A stretch of DNA of 24,423 bases from a virus (lineage: Duplodnaviria > Heunggongvirae > Uroviricota > Caudoviricetes), in the IMG/VR virus record IMGVR_UViG_2531839474_000007, positions 1 to 24,423 of that record. One strand, written 5' to 3'. The position numbers and the translations under genes are program-made. Below, one piece after another: positions 1-7,850 of the stretch (positions are counted from its first letter, which is position 1; each line of letters opens with the position of its first letter). The notes under the pieces were generated by a model. That model was given only the letters and a program-made list of their open reading frames with translations. It searched no databases and had not been told where the DNA came from.

Positions 1-23
1 GCCTGTAACTGTTTTTCGTCCAT
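1..23 (-). CDS. 5' end of an ORF (MDEKQLQ...) running off the left edge; next gene downstream of the methyltransferase on the minus strand
   Basis: ATG at 23..21 (minus) preceded by a GAAGG Shine-Dalgarno-like motif about 9 nt upstream; only 7 codons visible. Confidence 0.2.
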
Positions 24-115
24 AAATTAACCTTCATTTGATGCTGGATTGAACATATCAAAATCAGGCAATTACACAAATCTATGTACAGGCTCTAATA
101 ATTTGTTGAAATAAA

Positions 116-775
116 CTAAATATGTATATGTTTACCAACAACCACATATGAACTACCTGCTTTGCTCCATGATTTTATTATTTCTAAATTATTATCTGAG
201 CATATTTTACTTACAGTATCCACATCTAATAAACCATAGTAGAAAGCATTGCGAGAGTTTTGGTATATATACCCATGCAAATGTTTAATACCGCTCTCGT
301 ACCTCTTGAAATAAGAACTTTTGTATTGATTGACAATCAGTGCTTCACCATCACTCTTTAATAATTCTCTAATCGCACTGAGGACTTTGTGAATTGTGGA
401 TTCACATGGAATTGCGGAAAGCACGTTTGCGCAAAGTATGAAATCATAATGATTTGTTATTTTATCTATATTTTCATAAGAAACAATATTAGCATTCTTA
501 TAGTTATTTATCACGTAATCTGGAATCGTGGTTTGTACACCTCTGATAATTTGCACTCTTTCTAGTTGTCTTCTGGAATCTAAAAATGTCACAGTTTCAA
601 ATTTATTTACTAATTGTTCTGAATATCTAAGTTTTCCACATCCAAAATCAATGGCATTGCCATTTTTATTAGTGCTTTCAATCTGTTTACAGAGATAGTT
701 AGATGGCATAGTGTGCGGTTTCGCTGCATTTTCTGAACGTATGTTTATTCCATTTATTTTGTAATTCAAAATCAA
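116..775 (-). CDS. class I SAM-dependent methyltransferase, substrate unknown
   Basis: 219-aa ORF from the track; motif I AIDFGCGKL (Gly-rich SAM loop), acidic post-I residue in VTFLD, motif II DFILCANVL, motif III LLKSDGEALIV. Very AT-rich. Start uncertain: TTG at 775 or 769, or ATG at 709. Confidence 0.6.
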   Translation of the reverse strand: MILNYKINGINIRSENAAKPHTMPSNYLCKQIESTNKNGNAIDFGCGKLRYSEQLVNKFETVTFLDSRRQLERVQIIRGVQTTIPDYVINNYKNANIVSYENIDKITNHYDFILCANVLSAIPCESTIHKVLSAIRELLKSDGEALIVNQYKSSYFKRYESGIKHLHGYIYQNSRNAFYYGLLDVDTVSKICSDNNLEIIKSWSKAGSSYVVVGKHIHI

Positions 776-1380
776 CCTCGTTTAAAAAATATTGTTATTG
801 TTAAAGAATTCTTTTATTTTGCTATCAGGTATTTGTCTTACTTGGCTTTCTGTTCTTGGTTTAACTGATGCTATGAAAATAAGGAAGTCAAATGCGACAA
901 GAGAAATAATCCACAACCAAAGATTAATTAAAGAGCCAGTAACAGAGAATATATTTGTTAATTTGGCGATACTTATTATTAAAATAGTAACAAATGCGAT
1001 TACTGTATGTTCAAAGAAAACCCAAAAGTAATAAACTTTGTTCCAGAAAAGTTCAACGTAATGTTTGTCTTTTAACTCTTTAACTTCTGGGTAATACAGT
1101 TTACTCATTACCTTGTGAGATTCATCAGTAGTTAATTTTCTCGTAACGCCTGCAATTTTTGCTAATGGTTTAATAATTAAATGACTATCCCACATCTTCC
1201 TTATTCCAATAATTTTTGCTACATTATTATGTAGATCTAAAGCTCCACTAATTACTGACCAAAAAACTGAAGATGCAATTGGTAATATGCCAAAGGTTAA
1301 TATCCATTTAATAAATTCCTCGTAGTCTTTAACGGGGGTGAACCGCCCCGGTTTTCCTGGAGAGTGTTTTATCTGTGAAC

Positions 1381-2268
1381 TCAGGCTGCCAGATCATCGT
1401 TTCTGATGGAAGCATAATAAGCTTTTTCTGCTTCTGCCGGAGGGATATGACCCAGCCTTCCCAGCAATCGTCGATTGTTATACCAGTCCACCCACGTGAG
1501 TGTGGCCAGTTCCACTTCTGCACGGTTTTTCCAGCTCTTACGGTGTATTACCTCCGCTTTGTAAAGACCATTGATGCTCTCCGCCATCGCGTTGTCATAC
1601 GAGTCACCTGTACTCCCTGTTGATGCCAGCAGTTTTGCTTCTTTTAGTCGCTCCGTATAGGCCAGTGATACATACTGAGAACCTTTATCACTGTGATGGA
1701 CTGTGCCGGACGGCCGACGGGCCCACAACGCCTGCTCCAGTGCATCCAGCACGAATGTCGTTTCCATAGACGATGAGACTCGCCACCCCACGATACATCC
1801 GGCAAACACATCAATGATGAACGCCACATAGACGAAGCCCTGCCATGTGCTGACGTAAGTAAAATCAGCCACCCACAGCTGGTCAGGACGTTCTGCCACG
1901 AACTGACGGTTTACGCGGTCGCCTGCGGAAACGGCTTTCCGGCTGACGGTAGTACGGACCTTTTTACCCCGGAGAACACCGGCAAGTCCCATAACCGCCA
2001 TGAGGCGCGCCACTGTACATCTGGCCACCCTGATACCTTCGCGTAACAACTGGCGCCAGACTTTACGCACACCGTACACCTGATGATTTTCATCGTATAC
2101 GCGCTGTATCTCTCTCTTCAGCCAGTCATCGCGCTGAGCACGGGCACTGCGTTTATCAGGATGATGTCGCTGTTGCTGACAGTGGTAATACGTTGACGGG
2201 GCAATATGCAGTTCACTGCATACCGGTCCGACCCCGTACTGCTCACGCAGCTTATCCAGCAGCGGCAT
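1381..2268 (-). CDS. IS629 OrfB transposase (DDE/integrase catalytic region)
   Basis: 295-aa ORF identical to the copy-2 OrfB; -1 frame relative to orfA. Confidence 0.9.
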   Translation of the reverse strand: MPLLDKLREQYGVGPVCSELHIAPSTYYHCQQQRHHPDKRSARAQRDDWLKREIQRVYDENHQVYGVRKVWRQLLREGIRVARCTVARLMAVMGLAGVLRGKKVRTTVSRKAVSAGDRVNRQFVAERPDQLWVADFTYVSTWQGFVYVAFIIDVFAGCIVGWRVSSSMETTFVLDALEQALWARRPSGTVHHSDKGSQYVSLAYTERLKEAKLLASTGSTGDSYDNAMAESINGLYKAEVIHRKSWKNRAEVELATLTWVDWYNNRRLLGRLGHIPPAEAEKAYYASIRNDDLAA

Positions 2269-2594
2269 TATTTTTTCCAGAGGCGGTCGAACTCCGCCTT
2301 CGCAAAATAAGCGGAAGCCTGGCGAAGGATATCGTTACTGCGGCGCAGTTCACGATTTTCACGTTCCAGCTCTTTCAGACGCTGACGTTCAGCGGTGGTG
2401 AGTCCACCATCACCACTCCCGGTATCCCGCTCATGCTGACGAACCCACACACGCAGAGTCTCTGGTGTACAGCCAATCTTTGGGGCAATGGAACAAATTG
2501 CCGCCCATTGTGAGTCATATTCGCCCTGACTTTCCAGAACCATACGAACTGCCCGTTGACGGACCTCGGGGGAAAAACGTGTATTTTTAGTCAT
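2268..2594 (-). CDS. IS629 OrfA (HTH DNA-binding transposase subunit)
   Basis: 108-aa [22 protein letters not shown]... with C-terminal leucine-zipper-like region; ends in the A6 tract where IS3-family -1 frameshifting occurs. Confidence 0.9.
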
Positions 2595-3374
2595 CCTGTT
2601 TACCTCTTTCTCAGGGAGTTTAGTCTCCAGGATTCCCGGGGCGGTTCAGGGGGGATATACTTGGCATTAATGCCAACCAATGGCATGTAGCCATAAATGA
2701 CTAATGATAGGTAAAATATAAATGTAGTAATAAAAGTCGCCTTATGGAGCATAGGCAACATTTCATTATAACTCTTTGGTGGTTCTAACATTTTACTCTC
2801 CAAACACTCAAAAAAAAGCTAATCTTCTATAATAACGAAATTCAGCTGGCACAATTAAAGATTAATTGCCACCAATTTCTTGATTTTATAATTTTATCTA
2901 AATGTTTTTGATTAATCTAGTCCTAAAAGAAACCTACTGCATAAATATTTATGCTGATGACCCACTCCCTGTTCGTTAACACATAGCAACGTTAGTAATG
3001 CATCCTAAGTGATCAATATTTTTGCTAGCTTCATCTGCTCGCTCAAAGGGAACTATAATGTTGGCTTGCGTGTGACTTGGCATGTTTAAAGAAGTGCTGG
3101 TGGTGACTGGTTGCTGTTTTCCATTTCCACAGAACAAAATCATAGAAACTATACCCAGTAGTTGTATTGAATCACTGACGAGACAGCCTCATATTTATCA
3201 GGACTGGTGTACGTCCAATACAGGAGGTTGTGGTGCTGGTTCTCAAATGTGCGCTGGCTATTGCTGCTGTAATGGCAATTTATTGTCTTGCTGTTGTTCT
3301 TATGGATCACCTTTCTGATTGATTTCATATTGGCGAGGTAACGGTAGTTAAGTAGAATTGCTGCGGGTGCTTGA

Positions 3375-3412
3375 GGCTATCTGCCTCGGGCATCAACACC
3401 AAAGGCAGATAG
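3375..3412 (+). promoter_or_regulatory. perfect 10-bp inverted repeat (CTATCTGCCT ... AGGCAGATAG) in the hok/mok leader; presumed mRNA structural element
   Basis: Hairpin read directly; no T-run on either strand so not an obvious terminator; lies where hok mRNA 5' regulatory structures and the antisense sok gene are expected. Confidence 0.35.
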
Positions 3413-3476
3413 AGAAAAGCCCCAGTTAACATTACGCGTCCGGCAAGACGCTTAACATTAATCTGAGGCCATATCT

Positions 3477-3689
3477 ATGCTCTACACACGTAGGTTAGCC
3501 TCTTACGTGCCGAAAGGCAAGGAGAAGCAGGCTATGAAGCAGCAAAAGGCGATGTTAATCGCCCTGATCGTCATCTGTTTAACCGTCATAGTGACGGCAC
3601 TGGTAACGAGGAAAGACCTCTGCGAGGTACGAATCCGAACCGGCCAGACGGAGGTCGCTGTCTTCACAGCTTACGAATCTGAGGAGTAA
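3477..3689 (+). CDS. mok: mok-like reading frame (in-frame N-terminal extension overlapping hok)
   Basis: 70-aa ORF with GAGG Shine-Dalgarno 8 nt upstream of ATG 3477; contains the complete Hok frame. Confidence 0.45.
   Translation: MLYTRRLASYVPKGKEKQAMKQQKAMLIALIVICLTVIVTALVTRKDLCEVRIRTGQTEVAVFTAYESEE
3534..3689 (+). CDS. hok: Hok/Gef-family type I toxin (HokD/RelF-like small membrane toxin)
   Basis: 51-aa MKQQKAMLIALIVICLTVIVTALVTRKDLCEVRIRTGQTEVAVFTAYESEE; GGAG Shine-Dalgarno 9 nt upstream; single transmembrane helix plus conserved Cys; near-identical to my recollection of HokD. Confidence 0.85.
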   Translation: MKQQKAMLIALIVICLTVIVTALVTRKDLCEVRIRTGQTEVAVFTAYESEE

Positions 3690-3755
3690 GAGACCCGGCG
3701 GGGGAGAAATCCCTCGCCACCTCTGATGTGTCAGGCATTCTCAACGCACCCGCAT

Positions 3756-3786
3756 TTAACCCGCTTCGGCGGGTTTTTGTTTTTAT
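3756..3786 (+). terminator. rho-independent terminator downstream of hok
   Basis: AACCCGC-TTCG-GCGGGTT stem-loop followed by TTTTTGTTTTTATTTT. Confidence 0.75.
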
Positions 3787-3909
3787 TTTCAACGCGTTTG
3801 AAGTTCTGGGCGGTGCCGGAATAGAATCAAAAATACTTAAGTAGCGCGCAGGGATAAGAGGGATGGACCCCGAACAGGGGAGTGCTATTTATCTGGAAGG
3901 ATTCTGTTG

Positions 3910-4170
3910 ATGAAAATCGAAGAATTACGTGAAATTTTTACTGAAGATGGCCTCTATACTGTGCGCGTTGAGAATGGTGCTATTGTCAGTCACTGCCGTA
4001 TTAAATGTTTACAATCTAAACAAAGGAAGAGTGGTGCTGCGTTAATTTATTTTGTGGATGAACTTGTGACAGATGGTTTTATTTTGCGTGAAAATGAATT
4101 TGTCACATCATTGCAGTCTCTGAAAGAAGCTGGGCTTAAGGCTGGTTTTTCTGCTTTTGAAGATGAGTAA
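3910..4170 (+). CDS. hypothetical small protein; positional equivalent of rem in the Qin prophage
   Basis: 86-aa ORF with GGAAGGA upstream; position between hok and the ydfU-like gene matches the Qin order hokD-rem-ydfU; no motif recognised. Confidence 0.45.
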   Translation: MKIEELREIFTEDGLYTVRVENGAIVSHCRIKCLQSKQRKSGAALIYFVDELVTDGFILRENEFVTSLQSLKEAGLKAGFSAFEDE

Positions 4171-4236
4171 ATTCATCTACAATTCAGCACAGGGCTGAAC
4201 CCCTGTTGAGTAACACTGTGCCACCGGAGAAAACCG

Positions 4237-4515
4237 ATGGCGCAAAATTCCAGACCACACAATTCTGATAATTCAGCCGTCTTTGCCAGCAGGCACGGGC
4301 GGCGTTCTCATGCATTCAAATATGACTGGTACCAGCATGACCCATGCACTGAAGAACAGGCCGAATGGCTGATTCAGAACTACCGCAGGCGTGGGTATGA
4401 GTTTAGGAAAGCCCTCAGCCTCGATTATCGTCACTGGATAATCTACGTCAGGCTCCCTTATTCCGAACGCCCACCGCGTCCGTCCCGCACATTCCAGCAA
4501 CGCATCTGGAGGTAA
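4237..4515 (+). CDS. hypothetical protein (92 aa), basic/aromatic-rich
   Basis: ATG with GGAGA Shine-Dalgarno 7 nt upstream; stop abuts the start of the next gene; no motif recognised. Confidence 0.45.
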   Translation: MAQNSRPHNSDNSAVFASRHGRRSHAFKYDWYQHDPCTEEQAEWLIQNYRRRGYEFRKALSLDYRHWIIYVRLPYSERPPRPSRTFQQRIWR

Positions 4516-4516
4516 C

Positions 4517-5566
4517 GTGCGGGTATTACTTCGACCTGTTCCGGTACCGGAACTTGGGCTGGTGGTCCTTAAGCCGGGCCGTGAATCCATGCAGGTATTT
4601 CATAACCCTCGAGTGCTGGTGGAGCCGGAACCAAAAAGCATGCGCGGTCTGCCGTCCGGAGTCGTTCCTGCCGTTCGCCAGCCGCTGGCGGAGGATAAAT
4701 CATTACTGCCATTTTTCAGCGATGAGCGGGTGATTCGTGCTGCTGGCGGCGCTGGTGCACTGTCTGACTGGCTGTTGCGTCATGTCAAATCCTGCCAGTG
4801 GCCTCATGGTGACTATCATCACAGTGAAACCGTCATACATCGTTACGGTACCGGCGCGATGGTGTTGTGCTGGCACTGCGACAACCAGCTGCGTGACCAG
4901 ACCTCTGAATCACTCGGGCAACTTGCTCATCAAAACCTGTCAGCATGGATGATTGACGTCATACGCCATGCAATGAATGGCACACAGGAGCGGGAATTAT
5001 CTCTGGCTGAATTATCCTGGTGGGCGGTCCGCAATCAGGTGGCGGACGCGCTACCGGAAGCTGTATTACGTCGTTCACTGGGGTTGCGTGCGGAAAAAAT
5101 CCGCTCCTTGTACCGCGAAAGCGACATCGTACCGGGAGAGCAGACCGCCACCAGCATACTGAAGCAGCGCACAAAAAATCTTGCGCCGTTGCTTCACACC
5201 CACCAGCCACAGAACCCAGCACAGGAAAAGGCGGTGGTCAGCATTACCGTTGATCCGGAGTCTCCGGAATCTTTCATGAGGCGACCTAAACGTCGCCGTT
5301 GGGTAAATGAGAAATATACGAGCTGGGTGAAGACACAGCCGTGTGCGTGTTGTGGTCAGCCAGCCGACGATCCCCATCACCTGATTGGTCACGGTCAGGG
5401 AGGGATGGGAACAAAATCCCACGATATTTTCACGCTACCGCTGTGTCGGGAGCATCACAACGAGCTTCATGCGGATCCGCTGGCGTTCGAAGAAAAGCAT
5501 GGTTCCCAGATTGATTTAATTTTTCGTTTTCTTGATCACGCCTTTGCAACCGGCGTGCTCGGGTAA
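4517..5566 (+). CDS. ydfU: DUF968-type prophage protein with C-terminal HNH-like zinc-finger nuclease motif (YdfU-like)
   Basis: 349-aa ORF; C-terminal CACCGQPADDPHHLIGHGQGG...CREHHNELH is an HNH-type motif; sits upstream of rusA and Q as in Qin; GTG start at 4517 after GGAGG. Confidence 0.65.
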   Translation: MRVLLRPVPVPELGLVVLKPGRESMQVFHNPRVLVEPEPKSMRGLPSGVVPAVRQPLAEDKSLLPFFSDERVIRAAGGAGALSDWLLRHVKSCQWPHGDYHHSETVIHRYGTGAMVLCWHCDNQLRDQTSESLGQLAHQNLSAWMIDVIRHAMNGTQERELSLAELSWWAVRNQVADALPEAVLRRSLGLRAEKIRSLYRESDIVPGEQTATSILKQRTKNLAPLLHTHQPQNPAQEKAVVSITVDPESPESFMRRPKRRRWVNEKYTSWVKTQPCACCGQPADDPHHLIGHGQGGMGTKSHDIFTLPLCREHHNELHADPLAFEEKHGSQIDLIFRFLDHAFATGVLG

Positions 5567-5578
5567 AAGAGGTTACTG

Positions 5579-5938
5579 ATGCGTATAGAGTTTGTTTTGC
5601 CTTACCCGCCAACGGTGAACACCTACTGGCGGCGTCGTGGCAGCACATATTTTGTATCAAAAGTCGGTGAGCGTTATCGCCGTGATGTGGCGCTTATTGT
5701 TCGCCAGCAGCAACTGAAATTAAACCTGTCCGGAAGGCTGGCAATAAAAATTATTGCAGAGCCACCGGATAAGCGCCGTCGTGACCTGGACAATATCCTG
5801 AAGGCACCACTGGATGCACTGACGCATGCGGGGCTGCTCATAGACGACGAGCAGTTTGATGAAATTAATATTGTGCGCGGTCAGCTTGTTCCTAGTGGGC
5901 GGTTGGGGATAAAAATCACAGAACTGGGGTGCGCATGA
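5579..5938 (+). CDS. rusA: RusA-family Holliday junction resolvase
   Basis: 119 aa; the acidic motif DKRRRDLDN and overall similarity to E. coli RusA; typical lambdoid nin-region position just upstream of Q. Confidence 0.85.
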   Translation: MRIEFVLPYPPTVNTYWRRRGSTYFVSKVGERYRRDVALIVRQQQLKLNLSGRLAIKIIAEPPDKRRRDLDNILKAPLDALTHAGLLIDDEQFDEINIVRGQLVPSGRLGIKITELGCA

Positions 5939-6624
5939 ATAACCAGTATTTACAGTTTGTGCGTGAGCAGCTCATTATCGCCACCGCTGATTTGAGTGGG
6001 GCAACAAAAGGTCAGCTTGAAGCCTGGCAGGAGAATGCCATGTTCGATACAGGGCGTTACAGGCGTAAAAAAATCCGGTACCGCGATGAAGTGACTGGAA
6101 AAATGATAACGCGGGATAATCCACCAATCCCGGGAAAGCAATCGCTGGCGAAGGGGACGTCAATTCCTCTGGTCAGTCCGATTGAGTTTTCGACATCATC
6201 GTGGCGGCGGGCTGTTCTGTCTCTTGAAGAACATCATAAAGCCTGGTTGTTGTGGTGTTACAGCGGGAGTATTTGTTGGGAATATCAGATCGCGATAACA
6301 CAGTGGGCGTGGAATGAATTTAATACTCAATCCGGTACCAGAAAAATTGCAGGGAAAACGCAGGAACGCCTGAAAAAATTAATCTGGCTGGCGGCGCAGG
6401 CAGTAAAAGCAGAACTTTTTGGTGGGGAAGGTTATGAATACAAGGAGCTGGCATTACTGGTGGGAGTGACAACTAAAAACTGGTCCAAAACATTTACTCG
6501 TCACTGGGTTGCAATGAAACACATTTTTCACCGACTGGATAGTGAGGCTTTATTGTTTGTAATGAGAACGCGTTCAAAACAAAAGGCGGCATTTTCAAAG
6601 CAAAGTGTTGCAAAAGTAGATTGA
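5935..6624 (+). CDS. putative late-gene antiterminator Q (assigned by position)
   Basis: ATG 5935 overlaps the rusA stop (ATGA coupling); 229 aa; immediately followed by a tR'-like terminator and the tRNA cluster; no lambda-Q zinc-finger motif recognised. Confidence 0.45.
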   Translation: MNNQYLQFVREQLIIATADLSGATKGQLEAWQENAMFDTGRYRRKKIRYRDEVTGKMITRDNPPIPGKQSLAKGTSIPLVSPIEFSTSSWRRAVLSLEEHHKAWLLWCYSGSICWEYQIAITQWAWNEFNTQSGTRKIAGKTQERLKKLIWLAAQAVKAELFGGEGYEYKELALLVGVTTKNWSKTFTRHWVAMKHIFHRLDSEALLFVMRTRSKQKAAFSKQSVAKVD

Positions 6625-6687
6625 AAGGCATATATTTCATGCAAATCTGATATTTTGCCGATTTTGTACGTGATGGCAAAAGCAAAC

Positions 6688-6716
6688 AAAACCCGCCCAC
6701 AAGCGGGTTTTTTTGT
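6688..6716 (+). terminator. rho-independent terminator (tR'-like) downstream of the Q-like gene
   Basis: AAACCCGC-CCACAA-GCGGGTTT stem-loop followed by a T-run. Confidence 0.75.
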
Positions 6717-6834
6717 GCCACTTATCTCGGATAGACATGGTGAATGCGCTGGTGGAGGAAGCAAGGGTAATTTTTAACCAGGTGATTCTTGAATGCTTGC
6801 AACATTGATTTCGTAACGTTATTATCCTGCGCCC

Positions 6835-6910
6835 GGCCCTTTAGCTCAGTGGTGAGAGCGAGCGACTCATAATCGCCAGGCCGCTGGTTCAAATCCAGCA
6901 AGGGCCACCA
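6835..6910 (+). tRNA. tRNA-Ile2 (anticodon CAU, ileX/ileZ-like; lysidine-type) or tRNA-Met
   Basis: 76-nt cloverleaf folded by hand: acceptor GGCCCTT/AAGGGCC, D arm GCTC..GAGC, anticodon loop CTCATAA, T loop TTCAAAT, 3' CCA encoded; close to E. coli ileX as recalled. Confidence 0.85.
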
Positions 6911-6917
6911 TCACATA

Positions 6918-6994
6918 CCGCCATTAGCTCATCGGGATAGAACGCCAGCCTTCGAAGCTGGTTTCGCGGGGTTCGAGTCTCCGATGGCGGTCCA
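6918..6994 (+). tRNA. tRNA-Arg, anticodon UCG as read
   Basis: 77-nt cloverleaf: acceptor CCGCCAT/ATGGCGG, anticodon stem CCAGC/GCTGG with loop CTTCGAA, T arm CGGGG-TTCGAGT-CTCCG, CCA encoded; one D-stem mismatch. Confidence 0.8.
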
Positions 6995-7007
6995 TTATCG
7001 GTATTCT

Positions 7008-7084
7008 GCGTTTTTAGCTCAGCCGGACAGAGCAATTGCCTTCTAAGCAATCGGTCACTGGTTCGAACCCAGTACAACGCACCA
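7008..7084 (+). tRNA. tRNA-Arg, anticodon UCU (argU-like, reads AGA/AGG)
   Basis: 77-nt cloverleaf: anticodon stem ATTGC/GCAAT with loop CTTCTAA, T arm ACTGG-TTCGAAC-CCAGT, CCA encoded; one acceptor-stem mismatch. Confidence 0.8.
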
Positions 7085-7253
7085 CACTTATTTTCCCTCG
7101 CTCGCTTTTGCGGACCTTTTTTGTATCCGCACCACGCCCGGCGCATACCAACCACAGAGCCTTTCGGGGGGAGCTTATGGAGTGGTCAGTGTGACTTTCT
7201 CTGTGGGCAGATCGCTCCCGGGCGTTGGCTCACCCACCCAAAGGAACGTCACG

Positions 7254-7686
7254 ATGTTTGGTATTTTTGGTAAAAAAAGCCCGCAGAGCGGCAACGGAAA
7301 TTAAAAAGTTTGAAAAACGCGATCTGGCACAGGTGGTGATTAACGCCGCATACCTGGTGGCCTGTGCAGATGGTGAATGTGAGGCTTCCTAGAAAGCGAA
7401 GATCGAACAGGTACTGCGTAATCAGCCTGCGCTGTACGCGTTTACGTCAGAAATTAATGCGATTAGCGCAACCATTATCGGTCAGCTGGATACGAACTTT
7501 AAAACTGGTCGTCGTGCGGCGTTACGTGAGATCGAGGATGTGAAACACGATACGCGTGAAGCGGAAGATGTGCTGGATGTGGCGGTGGCCATTGCGGAGG
7601 CAGACGGCGAAATTGAGCCGGAAGAGCGCAAGGTGCTGGAAGAGATTGCCGGTGTTCTGGGTCTTCGTCTGGAGAATTACCTGTGA
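7254..7686 (+). pseudogene. TerB-like (tellurite-resistance TerB-family) gene inactivated by a frameshift and an in-frame amber codon
   Basis: ATG 7254 with AAGGA 8 nt upstream. The frame stops after 16 codons; the +1 frame entered at the A7 tract (7272..7278) continues through two ADG-x5-E type repeats (ACADGECEAS, AEADGEIEPEERKVLEEIAGVLGL) but holds TAG at 7390..7392 before ending at TGA 7684..7686. Confidence 0.55.
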
Positions 7687-7850
7687 CGGTAAAACTGCGC
7701 CTGACTGTGGCTGCACTCCTGCTGTTTCTGGTGGTGATGGTGGATTTCACCAGCAGAATCATGTCGGTGCTGGCGGATGGGGTGCTGGTCTGCGGCATTA
7801 TGGTATTGCTGTGGCCGGTGATAAAAAGAAACAGCCTGCATAATGCTTGA
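7683..7850 (+). CDS. small hydrophobic protein (about 55 aa) translationally coupled to the TerB-like gene
   Basis: GTG 7683 overlaps the upstream TGA (GTGA); two hydrophobic segments (VAALLLFLVVMV, VLVCGIMVLLWPV); alternative ATG starts at 7737 and 7761; below the ORF-track size cutoff. Confidence 0.3.
   Translation: MTVKLRLTVAALLLFLVVMVDFTSRIMSVLADGVLVCGIMVLLWPVIKRNSLHNA

Follow-up and report, generated by a model that had tools for sequence, protein, structure and literature searches.

A disrupted copy of the Escherichia coli K-12 ymfE–ymfD gene pair in a lambdoid prophage, and the possible role of this membrane protein–methyltransferase module

At the left end of the stretch of viral DNA analysed here (24,423 nucleotides of Caudoviricetes DNA, positions 1 to 24,423 of IMG/VR record IMGVR_UViG_2531839474_000007; hereafter the window) lies a minus-strand gene pair, composed of a split membrane-protein gene and an intact methyltransferase gene. 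Sequence comparison makes it nearly certain that this pair is a diverged copy of ymfE and ymfD, a catalogued and functionally uncharacterised gene pair of Escherichia coli K-12. The window copy is a pseudogenised two-gene ymfE–ymfD module in the cargo slot of a lambdoid prophage. An insertion sequence (IS) splits ymfE at codons 47/48 and ymfD is intact; in the window YmfE cannot be made and the module is non-functional. The features of this region are as follows.

1..93, minus strand: last 93 bp of an IS1414 copy, with the beginning of its transposase gene (96–98% identity to annotated IS1414 ends)
94..102: one copy of the 9-bp IS1414 target-site duplication, AATTATTAG on the gene strand (both junctions read in locus L065 against locus L001, both introduced below)
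116..769, minus strand: ymfD-like methyltransferase gene, intact, 217 amino acids, stop codon at 116–118 (homology to K-12 YmfD, Pfam, AlphaFold2)
770..781, minus strand: 12-nt intercistronic spacer with a GAGG Shine–Dalgarno-like motif (read from the sequence)
782..1338, minus strand: 3' part of the ymfE-like gene, from the second base of codon 47 to residue 231 and the stop codon (collinear with L001)
1339..2648, minus strand: IS3-family insertion sequence of IS629 type, 1310 bp (alignment to L001, open reading frames, pseudoknot, target duplication)
2649..2791, minus strand: 5' part of the ymfE-like gene, up to the second base of codon 48 (collinear with L001 from 13242)
2792..3364: AT-rich stretch upstream of ymfE, the presumed promoter region, up to hok/sok (GC 0.35)

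An uninterrupted allele is found in the prophage of E. coli C7 (locus L001; proteins WP_000892866.1 and WP_001373963.1), to which the window aligns from 94 to 1338 (L001 12001–13245, 99.9%) and again from 2649 to 10024 (L001 13242–20617). The scaffold JH659573.1 (GCA_000261145.1; locus L065) is 100% identical to window bases 1–7195 and reaches further left. In prophages of the window type the module is positioned between the replication and SMEK-domain genes on one side and hokD, rem, DUF968, rusA and Q on the other. As a first-pass annotation of this DNA had remarked, outside the IS the left 2.8 kb is AT-rich: GC is 0.29–0.35 at positions 1–1200 and 2601–3200, and ~30% over 1–2803 outside the IS, compared with 0.50–0.57 in the IS and phage genes. 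Its view of the pair as a horizontally acquired, AT-rich accessory unit of unknown function is supported. The membrane protein of roughly 236 codons that it described corresponds to 235 amino acids counted from an alternative TTG at 2803; the uninterrupted allele, present in E. coli C7 and others, encodes 231, the length also obtained when the pieces at 782–1338 and 2649–2791 are joined. For the methyltransferase, the open reading frame at 116–775, taken from the first TTG, gives 219 amino acids and the 6-nt gap between the genes that had been reported. The start supported by homologues, however, is the RefSeq-type TTG at 769, with GAGG upstream, which gives 217 amino acids and widens the gap to 12 nt.

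In BLASTP comparisons, the reconstructed membrane protein matches K-12 YmfE (b1138) with 61% identity (228/230 residues, E = 1e-107), and the methyltransferase matches K-12 YmfD (b1137) with 69% identity over 211 residues (E = 2e-112). Both alignments are full-length, the conserved motifs of the membrane protein are common to the window and K-12 versions, and the two genes are likewise adjacent on the same strand. A close homologue of the methyltransferase is named ‘ymfD’ in one database. On the strength of the two BLASTP matches the pair, which the first-pass annotation had considered impossible to assign, is a named K-12 module. In K-12, the cryptic prophage e14 has ymfE–ymfD at its left end, transcribed divergently from lit. 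Two 15-kb ‘plasmid’ matches turned out to be excised circular e14 elements and not screen clones. Among 5426 complete E. coli genomes, the window's allele is present in 151; 283, largely laboratory derivatives, have the K-12 allele. The module is accessory, not core, which agrees with the earlier expectation that it is not a housekeeping locus shared by all related genomes.

The element within ymfE is identified as an insertion of exactly 1310 bp (1339–2648) with a 4-bp target duplication (GGGG, 1335–1338 and 2649–2652), since its flanks are collinear with L001 and overlap there by 4 bp. It carries orfB (1381–2268, 295 amino acids), orfA (2268–2594, 108 amino acids) and an ALIL frameshift pseudoknot at 2197–2313 (120.9 bits), and identical copies elsewhere are annotated ‘IS3 family transposase’. 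The size of ~1.3 kb, the orfA/orfB arrangement with a −1 frameshift signal and a target duplication of 3–4 bp are those of an IS3-family, IS629-type element. Its length and terminal sequence TGAACCGCCCCGG fit IS629. The knockout of the first gene by such an element, as originally proposed, is thus seen directly against L001. Neither IS junction of the window was found in the 5426 complete E. coli genomes. The 1310-bp element occurs once more, inverted and 100% identical, at window 10025–11334, and the two copies flank hokD, Q, tRNA genes and downstream genes; ~179 more bases (11335–11513) are missing from the E. coli C7 prophage as well.

The IS629-type element landed in a run of seven cytosines of ymfE (ATCCCCCCCG, codons 46–48; window 1335–1338 and 2649–2655). 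In loci L066, L067 and L070, from three other genomes, this C7 tract is shortened to C6, which shifts the reading frame; the site could be a hotspot for mutation, or the difference could in some assemblies be an artefact of sequencing. We considered and rejected a conserved phase-variation tract, as the run is specific to the window's ymfE allele and missing in the other alleles. In a prophage contig of IMG/VR (locus L064, 5011–6905), the window's ymfE allele is split at nucleotides 313–316 by another insertion, ~1.2 kb long and showing a 4-bp overlap, which is an independent disruption of the membrane gene. Of 33 loci checked, 30 have a methyltransferase gene free of internal stops, among them all loci of the window allele; the other three carry a more divergent allele, in which a gapped alignment places the sole in-frame stop three codons ahead of that of the reference. 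The repeated loss of ymfE could indicate that the gene is costly, or that the tract is merely fragile.

The left edge of the window consists of a second type of IS. Bases 1–93 are 96–98% identical to the ends of annotated copies of IS1414, an IS256-family element, and the minus-strand open reading frame from base 23 (MDEKQLQ...), which the first-pass annotation had taken for the start of a third operon gene, is the start of the IS1414 transposase. In L065, window base 1 abuts an assembly gap of 1910 N (7196–9105) inside IS1414. The element there is a simple insertion with the 9-bp target duplication AATTATTAG, located 22 bp past the methyltransferase stop codon; the termini and the duplication are those of IS1414, and the interior lies in the assembly gap. 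Past the element, the scaffold continues with a convergent SMEK-domain gene, which is followed by a DUF977 gene and replication genes, as in the uninterrupted prophage. The leftward extension that had been called for did find what lies past the edge, namely IS1414 and the SMEK gene, and yielded no remainder of the operon. As the base-23 reading frame belongs to IS1414 and the next gene is convergent, the operon has two genes, not three.

The assignment of the second protein to the class I S-adenosylmethionine (SAM)-dependent methyltransferases, already made in the first-pass annotation, is confirmed by motif I, Pfam and fold, which agree. YmfD has an invariant D41-x-G43-C-G45-K motif and, after strand 2, a likewise invariant acidic residue for ribose binding, D64; Pfam Methyltransf_12 and Methyltransf_23 both score above their cut-offs. 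Its AlphaFold2 model (predicted local distance difference test score, pLDDT, 91.7) displays a Rossmann-type methyltransferase fold. The window protein differs from that of L001 by one substitution, L40I. A Foldseek search of the PDB returned 965 chain matches at E ≤ 0.001, and the 50 listed are methyltransferase-fold entries. The nearest structures among the matches listed are Trm9 (the top match), MfnG, NNMT, DhpI, DnrK and NodS, with TM-scores of ~0.6 and identities of 10–18%; the nearest sequence profiles, which match weakly, are UbiG and TehB. Family-specific motifs are RSENAAKP, which is N-terminal and invariant, and GCGKLRY. From these features we infer that YmfD is probably a soluble methyltransferase of the small-molecule type. 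Its sequence matched none of the Pfam families N6_Mtase, N6_N4_Mtase and DNA_methylase. A role as a DNA methylase or in restriction–modification was rejected: the protein of 217 residues contains neither a DPPY nor a PC motif and no target-recognition domain, and its partner is a membrane protein. In PADLOC-DB v2.0.0, YmfD produced only a weak match to mad2 (9.5e-5), confined to the methyltransferase core.

The AlphaFold2 model of YmfE (pLDDT 92.6) is all-helical, and hydropathy analysis delineates four hydrophobic segments at approximately residues 17–39, 55–80, 148–172 and 184–206. The central segment between the second and third of these (residues 80–146) contains 12 Lys/Arg, which suggests that it should be cytoplasmic together with both termini. 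Across 114 core and distant YmfE sequences, residues Y8, H83, R93, D97, Y129, D137, H139, W152 and E156 are 87–100% conserved, and three residues are conserved in 114/114. Judged by this pattern, the conserved polar residues look like a binding or catalytic site rather than a pore. The protein belongs to no family in Pfam, NCBIfam or PHROGs, and matches no PADLOC-DB v2.0.0 family at E ≤ 1. A profile search against PDB sequences returned nothing for the core family and one chance-level match for the distant family, and a Foldseek search against viral structures returned nothing at E ≤ 0.001. YmfE thus appears, from its sequence and model, to be a protein with four transmembrane segments and a novel fold that has no fold relative.

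The two proteins are tightly coupled across their relatives. A YmfD-like gene lies next to the YmfE relative in all 32 of the loci examined. An exhaustive YmfE profile search recovered 275 clusters at E ≤ 0.001, of which only 15 reach 1e-30; the remaining clusters represent a distant sister group of ~230-residue proteins with the same architecture. Four distant members (E = 3e-27 to 1e-13) were looked up: three are paired with a YmfD-like methyltransferase, and the contig of the fourth was too short. One of these distant pairs has the reversed gene order and a 4-nt overlap, and another overlaps by 11 nt. Across 17 distinct loci, the pairwise identities of YmfE and YmfD correlate at r = 0.96; the spacing between the genes runs from −11 to 55 nt. 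The Vibrio cholerae pair exactly fills the interval between two successive attC (VCR) repeats, 1487 bp apart, of the chromosomal integron array, and hence forms a single mobile cassette. The two genes are always adjacent and diverge together, and they are mobile as a single self-contained unit. In a Vibrio cholerae integron array (locus L013, 8191–8451) we also observed seven tandem copies of a 29-nt unit, beside a cassette encoding a DUF3307 protein and a 220-residue protein.

Relatives of the pair are spread through the Gammaproteobacteria, with distant ones recovered from metagenomes. They occur in lambdoid prophages and e14, in P2-like prophages of Enterobacter and Providencia directly after ogr, in a P4-like island with a retron-type reverse transcriptase–Toprim gene (PADLOC E = 6e-219) and gop-beta-cII, and in 27 predicted prophage contigs of IMG/VR. 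In one Pseudomonas genome, the pair lies 170 nt downstream of Hachiman (HamA and helicase), and in another 2.5 kb from Lamassu LmuA/LmuB; in P. psychrophila a C5 DNA methylase is near. On a low-GC metagenomic contig, the pair follows Avs4 (E = 0) at a distance of 430 nt. In a Halieaceae genome a JAB-domain gene lies beside it, and the pooled neighbour set that includes this locus gave two E1–E2 matches. The SMEK-domain neighbour of the window-type prophage (L065 9619–10518; L001 10809–11708), a protein of 299 residues whose gene is convergent with ymfD, matches the PADLOC model of a pAgo-associated nuclease (1.4e-20) and may for that reason be a separate defence gene. The earlier suggestion that relatives might be found among defence genes is thus borne out by the Hachiman, Lamassu, Avs4, retron and Lit neighbours. 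A recognised defence gene lies within ~3.5 kb in roughly 8 of 14 independent contexts, a small sample chosen by availability.

Upstream of ymfE, a simple scan of 2792–3364 identified no consensus minus-strand promoter. A 78-residue, cysteine-rich plus-strand reading frame at 3082–3318 (MFKEVLVVTGCCF...CCCNGNLLSCCCSYGSPF), between the ymfE upstream region and sok, carries no RefSeq annotation in relatives and is probably spurious. At 3365–3689 lies a hokD-type hok/sok type I toxin–antitoxin locus, divergent from ymfE and ~600 bp upstream of it, with an Rfam sok match at 3365–3539 (114 bits) and the end of the hok reading frame at 3689. Further along, downstream of the Q antiterminator region, 6835–7081 and 7855–8027 contain three tRNA genes and a match to the small RNA STnc100; the annotation of the corresponding E. 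coli C7 prophage gives the tRNAs as Ile, Arg and Arg.

Taken as a whole, the reading to which we lean, by a slight degree, is that the pair is a membrane-anchored methylation unit carried as conflict-related cargo and pseudogenised in the window. Its identity part is near certain; its functional part draws on architecture and neighbourhood. YmfE would be an inner-membrane protein with four transmembrane segments, both ends and a helical domain of ~65 residues being in the cytoplasm, and residues H83, R93, D97, Y129, D137, H139 and E156, which are invariant or nearly so, would form a ligand-binding or catalytic pocket. YmfE and YmfD together could then constitute a methylation unit anchored at the inner face of the membrane. 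Judged solely by its genomic context, this unit would serve in conflict with phages or mobile elements, as defence or exclusion, and not in housekeeping. A more specific version holds that YmfE–YmfD is an undescribed two-gene system against phages or mobile elements, acting by SAM-dependent methylation at the inner membrane with a pocket protein of novel fold lined by His, Arg, Asp, Tyr and Glu, and that the K-12 copy by Lit is probably silenced. This version is tentative, and we would sooner expect it to fail than to hold. Transcriptional data for SOS induction show the e14 lytic genes rising and ymfD and ymfE unchanged (PMC11002266), a pattern that fits cargo expressed in the lysogen or silenced.

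Several observations weigh against a role in conflict. To our knowledge, no resistance phenotype has ever been ascribed to the pair, even though K-12, a standard phage host, carries it. In PADLOC-DB v2.0.0, neither protein convincingly matches a defence model, and a tblastn search of 50,697 sequenced phage genomes returned no match. Several non-enteric loci lie amid ordinary regulators and metabolic genes, and the 8 of 14 defence contexts are suggestive, not a statistic, because the contexts were chosen by availability. Our literature search found no functional study of ymfE or ymfD and no phenotype linked to either by experiment; it found no paper carrying the pair's RefSeq accessions, and none with this pair in an integron-cassette or defence screen. 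The Keio ymfD knockout grows normally (PMC12096079).

The first alternative is a protective chemistry unrelated to phages. Here YmfD would methylate a toxic small molecule, a lipid or a quinone in the manner of TehB, UbiG or Pmt, and YmfE would bind, present or export it, providing tolerance to stress, bacteriocins or antibiotics. The small-molecule methyltransferases among the nearest structures and the UbiG and TehB profiles point in this direction, as do the enzyme-like invariant polar residues of YmfE. Integron cassettes often carry detoxifying enzymes, and among the products of the adjacent V. cholerae cassettes are GNAT, glyoxalase, DJ-1/PfpI and APH proteins. On the other hand, YmfD scores only 26–27 bits with the TehB equivalog models, for which the NCBIfam cut-offs are 218 and 303, YmfE is not TehA-like and has no transporter fold, and repeated adjacency to defence systems would be unexpected for a detoxification gene. 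We consider this explanation unlikely, but a serious contender.

An addiction module resembling a toxin–antitoxin system, in which one partner is toxic, the other neutralises it and the two stabilise prophages and integron arrays, is improbable. Such a module would be in keeping with a compact two-gene cassette found among ParDE and Phd/YoeB cassettes in Vibrio and Marinobacter, and with hokD adjoining the pair in the window-type prophage. A costly membrane component would also fit the pattern of decay, in which ymfE is repeatedly lost (through the IS, the C7-to-C6 frameshift and the second insertion) and ymfD is free of internal stops in all but three loci. However, both proteins are enzyme-sized, with conserved residues of catalytic type, and natural ymfE-null alleles retain an intact ymfD. 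The normal growth of the Keio ΔymfD strain (PMC12096079) also speaks against toxicity of an unneutralised partner, with the reservation that expression may be silenced, and e14 excision proceeds without reported killing (PMC11541549, PMC12956098).

It is very improbable that YmfD methylates nucleic acids, be it as an orphan epigenetic enzyme, in anti-restriction or in RNA modification, and that YmfE is an unrelated neighbour. The top Foldseek match is indeed the tRNA methyltransferase Trm9, and ymfD, one of four candidates tested as an enzyme for N6-methyladenosine (m6A) in mRNA, showed fewer m6A peaks on knockout (32 vs 602; PMC12096079). All four unrelated knockouts lost peaks similarly, however, and the authors dismissed ymfD with the others, concluding that none is the m6A enzyme (PMC12096079). 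The missing Pfam matches to nucleic-acid methylase families, DPPY motif and target-recognition domain also argue against it, and obligate pairing and co-divergence with YmfE speak against an unrelated neighbour. Finally, the three-gene minus-strand operon running past the left window edge, as first annotated, can be set aside almost entirely: an ATG-initiated reading frame does start at base 23, but this part of the window matches IS1414 ends, the source scaffold has a simple IS insertion followed by the convergent SMEK gene, and in 151 genomes the uninterrupted locus consists of no more than two genes.

The window copy, being a wreck, matters little in itself, and the family is the better lead. 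It is a strictly coupled, self-mobile pair that occurs in four kinds of prophage or satellite and in a chromosomal integron. It is absent from PHROGs, NCBIfam and PADLOC and, as regards the membrane protein, from Pfam; it is present in E. coli K-12 and hence directly testable. If the proposed role in defence or exclusion is correct, the pair would add a mechanism unlike those of known systems, membrane methylation chemistry performed by an enzyme of the small-molecule type, and would provide a function for two long-standing K-12 y-genes.

Compared with its closest known counterpart, the e14 pair of K-12, the window module has the same two proteins, gene order, strand and tight spacing, and each is AT-rich cargo of a prophage with a defence or toxin gene as its neighbour (Lit in e14; hokD and the SMEK-domain gene in the window-type prophage). 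The window pair differs in that it is another allele, resides in a lambdoid prophage at another chromosomal position (in the slot between replication genes and hokD/Q), and has its ymfE destroyed by an IS. The K-12 genes being uncharacterised too, the match gives the module a name but no explanation of its function. With the class I methyltransferases of small molecules and lipids (UbiG, NNMT, DhpI, NodS, DnrK), YmfD shares the fold, motif I (DFGCGK) and the acidic residue after strand 2; it is set apart by identities of only 10–18%, by its own RSENAAKP motif and by KLRY directly after the glycine loop. The tellurite resistance pair TehA/TehB likewise joins a membrane protein gene to that of a small class I SAM methyltransferase, and YmfD has weak TehB matches (Pfam, 2.1e-5; PDB entry 2xva, 0.007). 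Membership in TehAB was nevertheless rejected, since the TehB score lies below the cut-offs and the partner is not of the TehA type: TehA is a ten-transmembrane-segment channel of the TehA/SLAC1 family, whereas YmfE has four such segments and no Pfam family. We know of no defence system that joins a methyltransferase of the small-molecule type to such a membrane protein. Unlike the two-gene defence systems with a small membrane partner, such as Kiwa (KwaA/KwaB) or the membrane-effector modules of CBASS, retrons and Thoeris, YmfE has no PADLOC model and YmfD has its weak mad2 match. Like them, YmfE–YmfD is a compact pair of one membrane and one cytosolic protein, and it is found in prophage hotspots and candidate defence islands, beside Hachiman, Lamassu, Avs4 and retron genes.

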